Positions 4,800 to 9,289 of a DNA stretch of 64,000 nucleotides are shown piece by piece (within the stretch, counting starts at the first letter, position 1; every line of letters begins with the position of its first letter). Source of the stretch: Escherichia coli (GTDB lineage Bacteria > Pseudomonadota > Gammaproteobacteria > Enterobacterales > Enterobacteriaceae). The stretch is taken from the NCBI RefSeq assembly GCF_048403405.1, contig NZ_CP183129.1; one strand, written 5' to 3'. The notes under the pieces are model-generated. The model saw only the letters and a list, made by a program, of their open reading frames with translations, was not told where the DNA came from and ran no database searches. Made by a program: the position numbers and the translations under genes.

Positions 4800-5807
4800 C
4801 TATCCCAACAACTCTTCCTTAACATCCATCGCCAGTTCAAACGAATGCAGGCGCGCCTGGTGATCGAAAATCTGCCCGTTAACCATAATCTCATCGGCGT
4901 CGGTTTCGCGCAGGATCGACTGCAAGCCGTGACGCACTTTCGCTTTATCACCCACCAGCGACATACTCAGCGCCTGCTGCACGCCATACTGCTCGGACGG
5001 TGACCAGAACTGATCCATATTTTGAATCGGCGGCGGCAGTTGCCCGGTTTCGCCACGGCGCAGCTTCACAAAGGCTTGCTGCATTGAGGTAAACAGAAAT
5101 TCAGCGTCGCGGTTGCTGTCGGCGGCGATAATATTGATGCACACCATCGCATACGGTTTTTCCAGCCGTGCCGACGGTTTGAAGTTGCTGCGATAAAGAT
5201 GCAGCGCCTGGAACAACATATCCGGCGCGAAGTGTGAGGCAAACGCAAACGGCAGACCAAGCTGCGCCGCCAATTGCGCGCTGTAAAGGCTGGAGCCTAA
5301 CAACCACACGGGGATTTTCTCGCCATAGCCTGGTACCGGGCGCACATGCGGATTGGGATCGCGGGCGTCAAACCAGTCCACCAGCTCCGCGACATCGCGG
5401 GGAAAATTATCAATATCGCCGCTCATATGACGACGTAGAGCCATCATGGTTCGCTGGTCACTACCCGGAGCACGACCCAGCCCCAAATCGATTCGCCCCG
5501 GATAGAGCGTATTAAGCGTGCCGAACTGTTCGGCGATCACCAATGGTGAGTGATTAGGCAACATCACGCCGCCAGACCCCAGATGCAGCGTAGTGGTATT
5601 CGCCGCCAGATAGCCAATCAAAACTGATGTTGCAGCACTGGCAATGCCGGTCATATTGTGGTGTTCCGCCAGCCAGTAGCGATGATAGCCGCGCTTTTCA
5701 GCCAGACGGGCGAGGTCGAGAGAGTGGGAGAACGCTTCTCGCGCTGAAGAACCTTCGGGAATGGGGGCCAGATCGAGTAGCGAAAACGCAATGGTTTTAT
5801 CAGTCAT
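4800..5807 (-). CDS. yhbW: luciferase-like monooxygenase family protein YhbW
   Basis: ORF track 335 aa; recognised as YhbW; conserved position. Confidence 0.9.
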
Positions 5808-5887
5808 AACAGCTCACTTTGTTACCGATTAATCTTTAATACTGCATTAAAGAGTAGTTAAAGTTGTTAACAAAGTGAGCTATTTAC

Positions 5888-6766
5888 TTACGCTTGCAGC
5901 TCCAGCCCGGCCAGCCGACGCCAGTAGCCGTTACAATCGCTGTTTGCCGTCAACGGCAGTGGCGCAGCGCCATTTTCATTGGCGCGGAAGGCGTCGAGTA
6001 TCGCGAAAGTGTCAGTACCCTGCGGTGACAGGCGGACCACATCAACCAGCCCCTGCATGGATGCCAGCTCGTTACCGAGGTTGTAAACGTAGCCGCTCAT
6101 GGTCTGAATGCCGTTGAGTACAAACACTTGTTGGTTTTCCTGCGACAGCACGTTGCGCCCGTTCGGATACTTAATGCAGCAGGTTTCGCACTCATCTTTC
6201 GGGCGGTCTTCCGAACGCGCGGTAAAGCAGCGGGCGGAGTAGGCCAGCGGCAGATGACCGTAGCTCAGGACTTCCACTTCAAACTGGTTGCGAATGCCCA
6301 GCTCATCGCACTGATTAAGCAGATTCACCAGCCAGTCGCGGGAAAGCTCCACCGGCATACACCAGCGCATCATGCCCTGTTTGAGCAATATTTTCAGTGT
6401 CACCGCGTTGTAGCAGTTCAGCGCGTGCCCGGCGACGAACGGCAGTTTGCGTTCAGCGCACATATTCACCACGCCGAGATCGCTGGCTTCAATCAGAAAC
6501 TCACCGTTCTCAACATAGCGTTTCAGTTCGCCCAGTTCAGAGGATGCCTGCACCAGCGCCAGCGTGGAGAGCACAATCTGCTTACCACTTCCGGCGAGTG
6601 ATTTTGCCATCTCCAGCCAGTCGCCAACTTTGGTTGCCCGGCGCTTGCTGCATACCGCTTCACCAAGATAAATCACGTCGGCGCTGCTGGCGGCGGCCTG
6701 CTGATAAAATTCTTCCAGCGTCTCTTTTGGCCAGTACCACAGCACTGGCCCTAAGGAATATTTCAT
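5888..6766 (-). CDS. ubiV: peptidase U32-family protein UbiV (YhbV), O2-independent ubiquinone biosynthesis
   Basis: ORF track 5888..6784; start moved to the ATG giving MKYSLGPVLWYW... (292 aa); Cys cluster for Fe-S binding; adjacent to ubiU. Confidence 0.88.
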   Translation of the reverse strand: MKYSLGPVLWYWPKETLEEFYQQAAASSADVIYLGEAVCSKRRATKVGDWLEMAKSLAGSGKQIVLSTLALVQASSELGELKRYVENGEFLIEASDLGVVNMCAERKLPFVAGHALNCYNAVTLKILLKQGMMRWCMPVELSRDWLVNLLNQCDELGIRNQFEVEVLSYGHLPLAYSARCFTARSEDRPKDECETCCIKYPNGRNVLSQENQQVFVLNGIQTMSGYVYNLGNELASMQGLVDVVRLSPQGTDTFAILDAFRANENGAAPLPLTANSDCNGYWRRLAGLELQA

Positions 6767-6774
6767 TGCTTTTC

Positions 6775-7770
6775 TCACTGCCATTTACGGTGATACGCGC
6801 CAAGGGTGGTCTGCGTGCCTTCGGACATCGACCCGAGCGTCTCCATCCACGCGCTTTGCGGTACGAAGTTTTGCGGATCGGCCTTACAACGGTCGATAGC
6901 CTGACGCCAGACTTTCGCCACCTGGCTGACATACGCCGGGCTACGCTGGCGGCCTTCAATTTTCACCGAAGCAATATTCGCCGCCATTAACTCCGGCAGC
7001 AGTTCCAGGGTATTGAGACTGGTGGGTTCTTCCAGCGCGTGATAGCGCTCGCCGTCCACCAGATAACGCCCTTTACACAGCGTCGGATAACCTGCGTTTT
7101 CGCCATCCTGATAACGGTCGATCAGCACTTCGTTCAGGCGGGATTCCAGCCCCTGCGGCGTTTGTTGCCAGCGCACGAAACGGGCCGGAGAACACGCACC
7201 CACAGTGTTGGGCGACTCACCCGTCAGATACGACGACAGATAGCAACGCCCTTCCGACATAATGCACAGGCTGCCGAAAGCAAACACTTCCAGCGGGACA
7301 GGTGTGACCCGAGCCAGTTGTTTCACCTGATGAATCGACAACACGCGCGGCAGCACCACGCGTGCAACGTCAAAATGGCGATGATAAAAGTTAATCGCCT
7401 CTTCATTGGTCGCCGAAGCCTGCACCGATACGTGACGTTCAATATGCGGGTAACGCTCGGCGGCGTACTCCAGCATGGCGAGGTCGGCGAGGATCAGCGC
7501 GTCGGCACCCAGCTGCGCCGCCATATCCACGGCGCGCTGCCAGCGGGCGTAACCGTCCGGATGCGCAAAAGTGTTAATCGCGATGTGAAGTTTGCGGCGA
7601 TGTTGATGGACAAAACTCACCGCTTCCTGCAATTTTTTCTCGGTAAAGTTAAGGCCGGCGAAGTGACGGGCATTGGTATCATCTTTTAGCCCGATATAAA
7701 CAGCATCTGCGCCGTTTTCGATGGCCGCCTTAAGCGCCGGGAGATTTCCGGCAGGGCAGAGCAGCTCCAT
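6775..7770 (-). CDS. ubiU: peptidase U32-family protein UbiU (YhbU)
   Basis: ORF track 6775..7797 begins at a TTG; ATG giving MELLCPAGN... yields 331 aa; recognised as UbiU. Confidence 0.88.
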   Translation of the reverse strand: MELLCPAGNLPALKAAIENGADAVYIGLKDDTNARHFAGLNFTEKKLQEAVSFVHQHRRKLHIAINTFAHPDGYARWQRAVDMAAQLGADALILADLAMLEYAAERYPHIERHVSVQASATNEEAINFYHRHFDVARVVLPRVLSIHQVKQLARVTPVPLEVFAFGSLCIMSEGRCYLSSYLTGESPNTVGACSPARFVRWQQTPQGLESRLNEVLIDRYQDGENAGYPTLCKGRYLVDGERYHALEEPTSLNTLELLPELMAANIASVKIEGRQRSPAYVSQVAKVWRQAIDRCKADPQNFVPQSAWMETLGSMSEGTQTTLGAYHRKWQ

Positions 7771-7978
7771 AATTTTTCCTGAAGGTTGCGCTATCAAAGC
7801 GCAAAAATGTTAACGAACTGGGATTTTAGTTAACCTTGCTGCGACAATTTTTGATTTAAGGCAGTTAAAGTTGTATTGGTGGTAGCAGCAATTTCATATG
7901 GAATTGTTGATTTATACCGCTATGTTATTTTTCTGATATGGCAAAATAGGATGATTGTTGAAACAGGGAGTAAAACTC

Positions 7979-8503
7979 GTGTTGGATAAACTGCGTTCCC
8001 GTATTGTGCATTTGGGGCCATCTCTGTTGAGTGTACCGGTAAAACTGACGCCATTTGCGCTAAAACGCCAGGTTCTTGAGCAGGTCTTAAGCTGGCAATT
8101 CCGTCAGGCGCTGGATGATGGCGAGCTGGAGTTTCTTGAAGGCCGCTGGTTAAGTATTCATGTGCGTGATATTGACCTGCAATGGTTTACCTCGGTGGTG
8201 AATGGCAAACTGGTCGTTAGCCAGAACGCGCAAGCTGATGTGAGTTTTAGTGCCGACGCCAGCGATCTGCTGATGATTGCGGCGCGTAAACAAGATCCGG
8301 ATACGCTCTTCTTCCAGCGTCGGCTGGCGATTGAAGGCGATACGGAGCTGGGGCTGTATGTGAAAAACCTGATGGACGCCATTGAACTGGAGCAAATGCC
8401 GAAAGCCTTACGCATGATGCTGCTGCAACTGGCGGATTTTGTTGAGGCGGGTATGAAAACCGCGCCTGAAACCAAACAGACATCGGTAGGTGAACCATGC
8501 TAA
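7979..8503 (+). CDS. ubiT: SCP2-domain protein UbiT (YhbT)
   Basis: ORF track 7955..8503; GTG at 7979 preceded by GGAG gives a 174-aa product; divergent from ubiU. Confidence 0.85.
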   Translation: MLDKLRSRIVHLGPSLLSVPVKLTPFALKRQVLEQVLSWQFRQALDDGELEFLEGRWLSIHVRDIDLQWFTSVVNGKLVVSQNAQADVSFSADASDLLMIAARKQDPDTLFFQRRLAIEGDTELGLYVKNLMDAIELEQMPKALRMMLLQLADFVEAGMKTAPETKQTSVGEPC

Positions 8504-9000
8504 TTCGAGTAGAAATTCCCATTGATGCGCCGGGTATTGATGCCCTGCTGCGTCGTTCATTCGAAAGTGATGCGGAAGCGAAGCTGGTTCACGATCTGCG
8601 TGAAGATGGCTTTCTGACGTTGGGGCTGGTGGCGACAGATGACGAAGGTCAGGTCATTGGCTATGTGGCATTTAGTCCGGTTGATGTGCAGGGCGAAGAC
8701 CTGCAATGGGTCGGCATGGCACCGCTGGCGGTAGATGAAAAATACCGTGGACAGGGGCTGGCACGCCAACTGGTCTATGAAGGACTCGATTCGCTCAATG
8801 AGTTCGGCTATGCCGCAGTGGTGACGCTGGGCGATCCGGCGCTGTACAGTCGTTTCGGCTTTGAGCTGGCGGCGCATCACGATCTGCGTTGCCGCTGGCC
8901 GGGCACTGAAAGCGCCTTCCAGGTACATCGTTTAGCGGATGACGCGCTGAACGGCGTAACCGGTCTGGTTGAGTATCACGAGCACTTCAATCGCTTTTAA
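8497..9000 (+). CDS. yhbS: GNAT-family N-acetyltransferase YhbS
   Basis: ORF track 167 aa; start overlaps the ubiT stop by 7 nt; recognised as YhbS. Confidence 0.9.
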
Positions 9001-9289
9001 TCTTTGGGGTTTGCAGGCTGCTCAACAGTTCTGCAAACCCTGCACCTTCCGCTACCAGACGTTCTTTTTGCCGTTTGGTCAGTTGCTTAACGCGATATTC
9101 TGCCCGTAACGCCAGCGAACGATCGCCCACTGGCGCGGAAAACGCCAGCGTTAGTTCTCCTTTCCCGCGCAGTGCTTTCGCCCCTTTGCCGCTCTGGTGC
9201 TCCTTATAGCGGCGTTCGACATCCGTGGTGATCCCGGTATAAAGCTTATTATCGGCGGTACGGATCAAGTAAAGAAACCAGGGTGTCAT
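8987..9289 (-). CDS. yhbQ: GIY-YIG domain protein YhbQ (UPF0213)
   Basis: ORF track 100 aa; GIY-YIG signature [15 protein letters not shown]...; 3' end overlaps yhbS convergently. Confidence 0.9.

Follow-up and report, generated by a model that had tools for sequence, protein, structure and literature searches.

Two FNR sites with degenerate second halves in the control region of the ubiT-hqbA/ubiUV divergon of Escherichia coli

The present analysis identifies, with near certainty, a locus within a stretch of 64,000 nucleotides of E. coli DNA (hereafter the window, a 64-kb sequence) as the ubiT-hqbA/ubiUV divergon, in which two independent FNR-activated modules of class II type lie in the 208-bp spacer between the divergent genes (Table 1). 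Neither the locus nor its function nor the element that controls it anaerobically is new: all three were characterised between 2019 and 2023, and for this reason no follow-up as a discovery is needed. The occupancy by FNR, the dependence on FNR and the outcome of the individual site mutations are taken from the work of others, and the identity of the sites in the window, their scores against a position weight matrix (PWM), their conservation and their spacing are established here.

According to the preferred model, at low O2 (anaerobic or microaerobic conditions) the [4Fe-4S] form of FNR binds the site F1, the centre of which is some 41–43 bp upstream of the leftward ubiUV start, and turns on the otherwise silent ubiUV operon. 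FNR also binds the second site, F2, and raises the expression of ubiT-hqbA; the centre of F2 precedes the start of the rightward promoter ubiTp2 by about 40 bp. The weak distal promoter ubiTp1 (start at about 7888) provides a basal, FNR-independent expression of ubiT in air.

Table 1. Genes and control elements of the ubiT-hqbA/ubiUV locus (positions in the window)
Feature	Position	Strand	Description
ubiV (yhbV)	5888–6766	-	292 aa; [4Fe-4S] protein of the U32 family; forms the O2-independent hydroxylase together with UbiU
ubiU (yhbU)	6775–7770	-	331 aa; U32-family [4Fe-4S] protein; gene 1 of the ubiUV operon
ubiU/ubiT divergent control region	7771–7978		208 bp
ubiUVp putative -10 hexamer	7823–7828	-	TAAAAT; start ~7814–7816
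FNR site F1	7851–7864		TTGATTTAAGGCAG; activates leftward ubiUVp
ubiTp1 region (distal, FNR-independent)	7874–7892	+	start ~7887–7888; holds palindrome remnant ATTGGTGGTAGCAGCAAT
FNR site F2	7907–7920		TTGATTTATACCGC; activates rightward proximal promoter ubiTp2
ubiTp2 putative -10 hexamer	7942–7947	+	CAAAAT; start ~7953–7954
ubiT (yhbT)	7979–8503	+	174 aa; SCP2-domain accessory factor; GTG start preceded by GGGAG
yhbS (renamed hqbA)	8497–9000	+	GNAT acetyltransferase, Hfq-binding regulator; gene 2 of the ubiT operon

The gene coordinates given by the open reading frame listing, by the sequence and by RefSeq, in its annotation of a genome with 100% identity, all agree. In the case of ubiV, an open reading frame of 298 aa reaching up to 6784 has an upstream in-frame ATG; the 292-aa form is backed by RefSeq and by the NCBIfam profile. 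UbiU matches the NCBIfam equivalog quinone_UbiU over its full length (residues 1–331; 560.5 bits vs a cut-off of 440), UbiV the equivalog quinone_UbiV (363 bits vs 275), and UbiT the profile SCP2_dom_UbiT (153 bits vs 46.9), while Pfam finds Peptidase_U32 in both UbiU and UbiV and SCP2 at residues 43–133 of UbiT. NCBIfam, Pfam and RefSeq thus concur with the earlier note on this DNA, which had named ubiU and ubiV as U32-family genes and ubiT as an SCP2 gene. The cysteines that have an established role as cluster ligands (PMC6747719) are all present in the window proteins, that is, C169, C176, C193 and C232 (4/4) of UbiU and C39, C180, C193 and C197 (4/4) of UbiV.

The gap between ubiU and ubiV is 8 nt. 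The layout is divergent as described earlier, the control region of roughly 200 bp being exactly 208 bp long, and the 7-nt overlap of ubiT with yhbS lies at 8497–8503 (ATGCTAA). The co-transcription of these two genes, suggested in the same note, is borne out by RT-PCR in Arias-Cartin et al. 2023 (PMC10470549) and by their co-induction (PMC10710024); in addition to its FNR co-induction, yhbS shows extra aerobic expression, possibly from a start site within ubiT (PMC10710024). The GTG start of ubiT and its Shine-Dalgarno sequence are kept in the alignment. Of 5426 complete E. coli genomes, 5424 carry the ubiT/ubiUV region, and in 5398 of these 5424 the spacer is at least 99% identical. The divergent arrangement of ubiT and ubiU seen in the window recurs in 80/80 other species, with spacers of 205–241 bp. 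The window comes from outside the K-12 lineage: along ubiV-yhbS (3113 bp) it shows 54 differences relative to K-12, and it has 100% identity to five clinical isolates. Relative to K-12 MG1655, one base of the spacer (7771–7978) differs, namely position 7799 (G vs A), which is outside F1 and F2.

The consensus scan of 7771–7978 gives no FNR match with two or fewer mismatches and exactly two matches with three mismatches, which are F1 and F2. Each has a perfect TTGAT half and agrees with TTGAT-N4-ATCAA at 7/10 positions. In the window, a match with three mismatches is encountered about every 200 bp, and the probability of two such matches, each with a perfect half-site, is about 0.02–0.05, which is marginal as far as sequence statistics go. 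With a PWM built here from 63 ChIP-backed sites, against which the consensus scores 21.3 bits, F1 ranks 18th in the window with 8.4 bits and F2 240th with no more than 1.2 bits, a level expected by chance about 0.7 times per spacer. It should be mentioned that this PWM favours strong sites, since its input sites were themselves PWM-selected. Neither the consensus scan nor the 63-site PWM separates F2 from the background. Both sites are also under the prediction threshold of the published FNR PWM; the best site under the spacer peak of Myers et al. has an ln(p) of -8.72, below the threshold of -10.75. F1 and F2 do not stand out in such scans because each site joins a perfect TTGAT to a poor half, in which just the key C is retained. 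The earlier note had found only partial FNR matches, and the consensus scan and the PWM check likewise reveal no strong site in the spacer. Its view that the control element could not be settled from the sequence holds as far as sequence goes; experimentally, the matter is closed, as the partial matches are the F1 and F2 of PMC10470549.

Both sites are letter-for-letter equal to the F1 and F2 published there. In the same source, a 5-nt mutation of the TTGAT of F1 abolishes both the FNR activation of a ubiUVp fusion and the production of UbiV, and mutation or deletion of F2 abolishes the anaerobic induction of UbiT, the basal level of which stays; the distal ubiT promoter remains constitutive when F2 is mutated, and the effects of F1 and F2 are mutually independent. 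The published site mutations altered the TTGAT halves only, in F1 as in F2, and in the available part of the paper no direct in vitro FNR binding or footprint at F2 was found. From the distances reported there, F1 is 36 nt upstream of the ubiUV start site, F2 is 33 nt upstream of the ubiTp2 start, and the ubiTp1 start is 19 nt upstream of F2. We infer the -10 hexamers of ubiUVp and ubiTp2 from the first two of these distances. With the start sites of that work, the F1 centre falls at about -42.5 (range 41–43 bp upstream) and the F2 centre at about -40.5. Counted to the first base of the putative -10 hexamer, the F1 centre is some 29.5 nt away, which would correspond to a class II geometry.

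Occupancy of the spacer by FNR in vivo is documented by a ChIP peak (Myers et al.) on which the four peak callers all agree and which a previous ChIP-chip study had also found. The centre of this peak converts to about 7855 in the window; it is a single peak and sits on F1. The operon yhbUV is listed among those having both an upstream FNR ChIP-seq peak and FNR-dependent expression. The aerobic/anaerobic expression ratios are 0.07 for yhbU, 0.115 for yhbV, 0.49 for yhbT and 0.47 for yhbS, and the induction of Flag-UbiT is about 35-fold, FNR-dependent and ArcA-independent (PMC10710024), an independent confirmation of the role of FNR. The comparison of anaerobic with aerobic transcripts proposed in the earlier note is therefore answered by published data, which show anaerobic induction. 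As grounds against its reading, that note had named a lack of such induction or a strong FNR match that it had missed; neither applies, because the induction is documented and no strong match was missed.

We have also considered an alternative in which the anaerobic induction proceeds via ArcA or another redox regulator, the FNR-like half-sites being chance matches. The modest agreement of both sites with the consensus, the frequency of three-mismatch matches and the background-level PWM score of F2 are in line with such a scenario, as is the superficial likeness of TGTTAAC (7808) and AGTTAAC (7828) to ArcA half-repeats. However, these are the sole TGTTA-like motifs of the spacer, in which no TGTTA direct repeat at 11-bp spacing is found; their distance is 20 bp instead of 11 or 22, and they coincide with the -10/start block of ubiUVp. 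Moreover, deletion of arcA leaves the UbiT induction unchanged (PMC10710024), yhbT, yhbU and yhbV are absent from the supplements to the ArcA regulon study (PMC3798270), the spacer carries the FNR peak, and the FNR response is lost upon mutation of TTGAT in F1 or F2 (PMC10470549). To the ArcA alternative we assign a negligible probability; published results with fnr and arcA deletions have refuted it already, and the scan for ArcA sites suggested earlier is moot, because of the unchanged UbiT induction and the absence of these genes from the ArcA supplements.

Activation by FNR at F1 and F2 is also what the phylogenetic footprint points to. The conservation set consists of 81 spacers, from the window and from 80 species of Enterobacteriaceae, the one family that the genome scan returned. 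F1, F2 and the -10 block of ubiUVp are the top three conserved 14-mers of the spacer, with a majority-base frequency of 0.97 vs 0.81 elsewhere, the ubiUVp block being the most conserved of all. In F1, 13/14 positions are conserved in at least 80/81 sequences, and in F2 the TTGAT and the CC(G)C are invariant or almost so. The distances from F1 to its -10 (28 nt) and from F2 to its -10 (35 nt) are the same in 81/81 sequences, unlike the F1–F2 distance, which varies between 56 and 67 nt. The locus can thus serve as a calibration case, in which working FNR sites look like noise to a consensus or PWM scan, as the score of F2 illustrates, yet are clear from the footprint and the fixed -10 spacing. 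The non-consensus halves of F1 (GGCAG) and F2 (RCCGC) are as invariant as the consensus halves across the 80 species, which suggests a selection beyond that on a generic weak half-site, for example for a tuned low affinity (an O2 threshold) or for a second ligand.

A further feature of the alignment, on which no publication was found, is a PdhR-box-like palindrome. In other genera it covers the distal ubiT promoter, and in Escherichia it is degraded. It is a 15-bp element, ATTGRY-N3-RYCAAT, at a fixed offset from F1 in 60/81 spacers. A third FNR site was rejected for this element, the half-sites being 3 bp apart and not 4, and so was an RNA hairpin: the halves vary independently and a compensatory pattern is absent, which makes a protein-binding palindrome more likely.

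With FNR as the main switch, it is conceivable, albeit improbable in our estimate, that other proteins also read the spacer and set the basal or stress-responsive level of ubiT. For E. coli the candidates are YbcM and YciT; for other Enterobacteriaceae, a GntR repressor of PdhR type acting over ubiTp1 comes into question. In ChIP-exo data, YbcM gives a very strong peak (signal/noise 470), which is assigned to ubiT and said to be located between ubiT-yhbS and ubiUV, and YciT gives a weak one (signal/noise 4.1) at about 7885–7914. However, the YbcM coordinates, if given in an older genome numbering, convert (by our own conversion) to about 8026–8040, within the ubiT coding sequence; the YciT list may be non-specific, because it shares many known FNR targets; and an expression effect on ubiT is reported for neither protein. 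As to PdhR, the palindrome of 13 Citrobacter and Salmonella species agrees with the PdhR box at 12/14 positions with an intact GGTnnnACC core, for which the chance per spacer is about 0.002, and the invariance of the non-consensus halves of F1 and F2 would also fit additional ligands. On the other hand, the core is mismatched in most species (GAT or GGC replacing GGT), and genomic SELEX of PdhR in E. coli K-12 does not list a ubiT site. In the window, the box AATTGGTnnnACCAATT with its GGTnnnACC core is not present: the sequence at the conserved position, tATTGGTggtAgCAgca, agrees at 9/14 positions with a broken core, and the best match anywhere in the spacer reaches 10/14. The right half of the Escherichia palindrome is degenerate, with an 11-bp deletion.

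The distal ubiT promoter of ancestral enterobacteria may have been under a PdhR-type repressor (pyruvate-sensing, GntR-family), the operator of which would be intact in Citrobacter and Salmonella; destruction of this operator by the Escherichia substitutions and the 11-bp deletion would account for the constitutive ubiTp1 of E. coli. That the spacer carries information beyond the two published FNR half-sites, in the form of a lost PdhR-type operator and of selected non-consensus halves, appears to us slightly less probable still than the involvement of additional proteins. FNR acting at F1 and F2 remains the preferred description of the anaerobic control.

Other scans covered the spacer and its surroundings. 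A sigma-70 consensus scan of the spacer and of 5700–9100 recovers 0/3 mapped promoters; the single match (7797 to 7769, minus strand) overlaps the ubiU start codon, is at chance level and was discarded. A terminator scan of the same regions gives matches at chance level only, and so does Rfam on 5600–9100 and on a Klebsiella locus with an insertion in the yhbW leader, where all matches are under the gathering scores. Just upstream of yhbW, the FNR-like sequence TTGTTACCGATTAA (5819–5832, two mismatches) scores 6.3 bits and has no listed FNR ChIP peak, and it was not retained as a site. A conserved hairpin precedes yhbW at the ubiV-yhbW boundary, and no publication on it was found. If true, the PdhR-type operator and the yhbW hairpin would contribute modestly to the picture of how the carbon and redox state is linked to quinone synthesis.

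Regarding known systems, the Citrobacter/Salmonella sequence tATTGGTgacACCAATa can be set beside the PdhR box (A)ATTGGTnnnACCAAT(T) of pdhR, cyoA, ndh and grcA (PMC7660256), from which it departs at two of 14 positions outside the core. The element covers the region equivalent to ubiTp1, a typical position for a repressor operator. The Escherichia version in the window is unlike the PdhR box in its degenerate right half, in the 11 missing bp and in having no counterpart among the E. coli genomic SELEX sites. F1 and F2 resemble the canonical class II FNR promoters (narG, nirB, dmsA, yfiD) in the TTGAT half, in its 4-bp distance from a second half that has the key C, in the centre about 40–43 bp upstream of the start (near -41.5), in the poor -35 and in the FNR dependence. 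They differ from these in their second halves, GGCAG and ACCGC, which are far from consensus, and in their PWM scores of 8.4 and 1.2 bits, compared to 12–17 for predicted sites in the published PatSer scoring. Finally, the ubiT-yhbS/ubiUV divergon of E. coli K-12 (Pelosi et al. 2019, PMC6747719; Arias-Cartin et al. 2023) is the same locus with the same gene order. The window proteins differ from those of K-12 by 1–2 residues and the spacer by the base at 7799, F1 and F2 being identical, such that there is no difference of substance between the two.

The cluster was located from the ORF table, from the sequence and from the annotation in RefSeq of an E. coli chromosome with 100% identity. UbiU, UbiV and UbiT far exceed the NCBIfam equivalog cut-offs in the profile search, and all eight cysteines that Pelosi et al. 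2019 (PMC6747719) defined as Fe-S ligands are present in UbiU and UbiV of the window; the three proteins have every property by which membership of their families could be tested. The mechanical ORF of ubiV is 298 aa long, starting from an in-frame ATG upstream at 6784, and the NCBIfam profile alignment favours the annotated 292-aa form. The description of the cluster in the earlier note holds in every detail, including the 7-nt overlap of ubiT and yhbS (ATGCTAA, 8497-8503). The co-transcription that it suggested is reported by RT-PCR in Arias-Cartin et al. 2023 (PMC10470549). An independent study (PNAS 2023, PMC10710024) puts yhbS, which it renames hqbA and describes as an Hfq-binding acetyltransferase, second in the ubiT operon and finds extra aerobic expression that may stem from a start site inside ubiT.

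Features of the ubiTUV locus in the window
Feature	Position	Strand	Remarks
yhbW	4800-5807	-	
ubiV	5888-6766	-	annotated 292-aa form
ubiU	6775-7770	-	
divergent spacer	7771-7978		208 bp
ubiUVp -10, inferred	7823-7828	-	ATTTTA on +, TAAAAT on minus strand; inside block 7821-7835
ubiTp2 -10, inferred	7942-7947	+	CAAAAT
ubiT	7979-8503	+	GTG start, GGGAG before it
yhbS	8497-9000	+	

A consensus scan of the spacer for TTGAT-N4-ATCAA, allowing up to 3 mismatches, returned exactly two matches, TTGATTTAAGGCAG at 7851-7864 and TTGATTTATACCGC at 7907-7920, both with a perfect left half. They are identical, letter for letter, to the sites that Arias-Cartin et al. 2023 (PMC10470549) describe as F1 and F2. 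In that study FNR activates the ubiUV promoter ubiUVp and, for ubiT, the proximal promoter ubiTp2. As described there, a 5-nt change in TTGAT of F1 abolishes the activation of ubiUVp and the production of UbiV, while mutation or deletion of F2 removes the anaerobic induction of UbiT, the distal promoter ubiTp1 still providing a basal level. Neither site depends on the other, the mutagenic primers confined the changes to the TTGAT halves, and the start sites are reported 36 nt from F1 and 33 nt from F2 (same study). An extended direct repeat of 13 nt is also common to F1 and F2, AATTTTTGATTTA at 7846-7858 and AATTGTTGATTTA at 7902-7914, 56 nt apart. The consensus halves of the two sites therefore face the same side (+ strand) despite the divergent promoters, being promoter-proximal in the case of ubiUV and promoter-distal in that of ubiT.

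With a correction of 1,977 bp, which we take to be the offset between the MG1655 genome versions, the centre of the FNR ChIP peak falls at ~7855 in the window, on F1. This peak, at yhbT/yhbU, was found by all four peak callers and an earlier ChIP-chip study, with a PatSer ln(p) of -8.72 for the best site beneath it (Myers et al. 2013), and yhbUV is among the listed operons having both an upstream FNR ChIP-seq peak and FNR-dependent expression. The comparison of aerobic and anaerobic transcripts proposed in the earlier note reveals anaerobic induction, the published aerobic/anaerobic ratios being 0.07 for yhbU, 0.115 for yhbV, 0.49 for yhbT and 0.47 for yhbS (Myers et al. 2013). The induction of UbiT is ~35-fold, FNR-dependent and ArcA-independent (PMC10710024), and our test for ArcA control of the promoters was negative.

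From sequence alone the sites are much less evident. In a scan of the whole window with a symmetric PWM built from 63 ChIP-supported FNR sites (Myers Table S6), in which the consensus scores 21.3 bits, F1 obtains 8.4 bits (rank 18 in 64 kb; empirical p 2.8e-4, near the published PatSer value) and F2 only 1.2 bits (rank 240), a score expected ~0.7 times per spacer. Simple counting gives P ~0.02-0.05 for two spacer matches each with a perfect half-site. The PWM scan proposed earlier would therefore not have settled the control element, and it was fair to report only partial FNR matches and to leave that element open.

The orthologous locus was fetched from 80 Enterobacteriaceae species, and in all of them ubiU and ubiT are divergent, separated by 205-241 bp. 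In the 81-sequence alignment, the three most conserved spacer stretches are F1, F2 and the block 7821-7835, with a majority-base frequency of ~0.97 versus 0.81 elsewhere in the spacer. The distance from F1 to the -10 element that we infer for ubiUVp is 28 nt, and that from F2 to CAAAAT, our own assignment for ubiTp2, is 35 nt, each in 81/81 sequences; by contrast, F1 and F2 are anywhere from 56 to 67 nt apart, and the leaders differ in length. The site centres lie ~42 bp (F1) and ~40 bp (F2) upstream of the reported start sites, which is class II geometry. The non-consensus halves keep the key C of ATCAA and little else, and vary no more than the TTGAT halves do (GGCAG in F1 and CCGC in F2, each 80/81). 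Comparison across species settles the control element where scans of the single sequence fail.

Within E. coli, the 3-kb region is found in 5424 of 5426 complete genomes, with a spacer at least 99% identical in 5398 of these 5424, and a single base, 7799, distinguishes the window spacer from that of K-12 MG1655. In strain EEC_W5 (NZ_CM130020.1) the spacer matches as two separate pieces, the one listed covering the first 126 nt only, which suggests that F1 and F2 are separated by an insertion or rearrangement in this strain.

Gao et al. 2021 assigned to ubiT the ChIP-exo signals of two uncharacterised regulators, strong for YbcM and weak for YciT. By our conversion of the MG1655 coordinates, the YciT peak lies at 7885-7914 and so overlaps both ubiTp1 and F2, the latter in its left half. 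A good many of the YciT peaks fall on FNR sites that are already known (dmsA, ybiY, yfgF, yjjI, yjiT). The YbcM peak, the strongest genome-wide (signal/noise 470), converts to ~8026-8040, within the ubiT coding sequence.

On the other side of the cluster, yhbW immediately follows ubiV in the same orientation and is oppositely regulated, with an aerobic/anaerobic ratio of 6.8 (Myers Table S12) and 5.7-fold higher expression when arcA is mutated (Park 2013 supplement). The gene is also a member of the MarA/SoxS/Rob/RamA regulon, RamA activating it directly in Klebsiella (PMC4310594), and the yhbW promoter must therefore be within the 80 bp that separate it from ubiV, or close by. Within this spacer (5808-5884, - strand) there is a 17-nt inverted repeat, AACAGCTCACTTTGTTA / TAACAAAGTGAGCTATT, with a nested 9-bp hairpin and a fold energy of -28.8 kcal/mol (z = -4.55). 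The end of its 3' arm is 4 nt from the ATG of yhbW, and in transcripts that read through from ubiUV the modelled hairpin could therefore bury the yhbW ribosome-binding site. Across 75 species the 11-bp cores of the arms do not vary, although the loop differs in length by at least 64 nt. The repeat has neither an Rfam match nor covariation, and may instead represent paired protein sites. Escherichia albertii and E. whittamii carry a GC-rich, hairpin-filled insertion of ~270 nt after the ubiV stop, ahead of the conserved 5' arm, and Klebsiella, Raoultella, Kosakonia and Phytobacter a conserved ~64-nt one, TGCAGCTTTTCTGGCC...GCGCCAGGCTGGAAGAAGACCTTCAATCTGATGAC, in the loop upstream of yhbW; neither matches any Rfam family.

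We have also considered a 15-bp palindrome, ATTGRY-N3-RYCAAT, present in 60/81 ubiU-ubiT spacers at a fixed offset from F1, between F1 and F2 and over the ubiTp1 position. An RNA hairpin is unlikely, because its halves vary independently. The version found in 13 Citrobacter and Salmonella species, tATTGGTgacACCAATa, matches the PdhR box AATTGGTnnnACCAATT (PMC7660256) at 12/14 positions with the GGTnnnACC core intact (chance ~0.002 per spacer). Escherichia, including the window (7874-7892), has a degenerate right half and lacks 11 bp; a PdhR box was looked for in the window and not found, no site in this region is listed for PdhR by genomic SELEX in K-12, and we found no link between PdhR and ubiT in the literature. 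The PdhR-like palindrome is a lead about other genera rather than a feature of the window.

The locus and its FNR control are already known, and the present analysis adds only the comparative footprint and side leads. The promoters share the geometry of the class II FNR-activated group, and the literature supplies occupancy and genetics, although their sites resemble the FNR consensus only weakly. What the window carries is the ubiTUV locus of K-12, here in a different E. coli lineage and with the published FNR sites intact.
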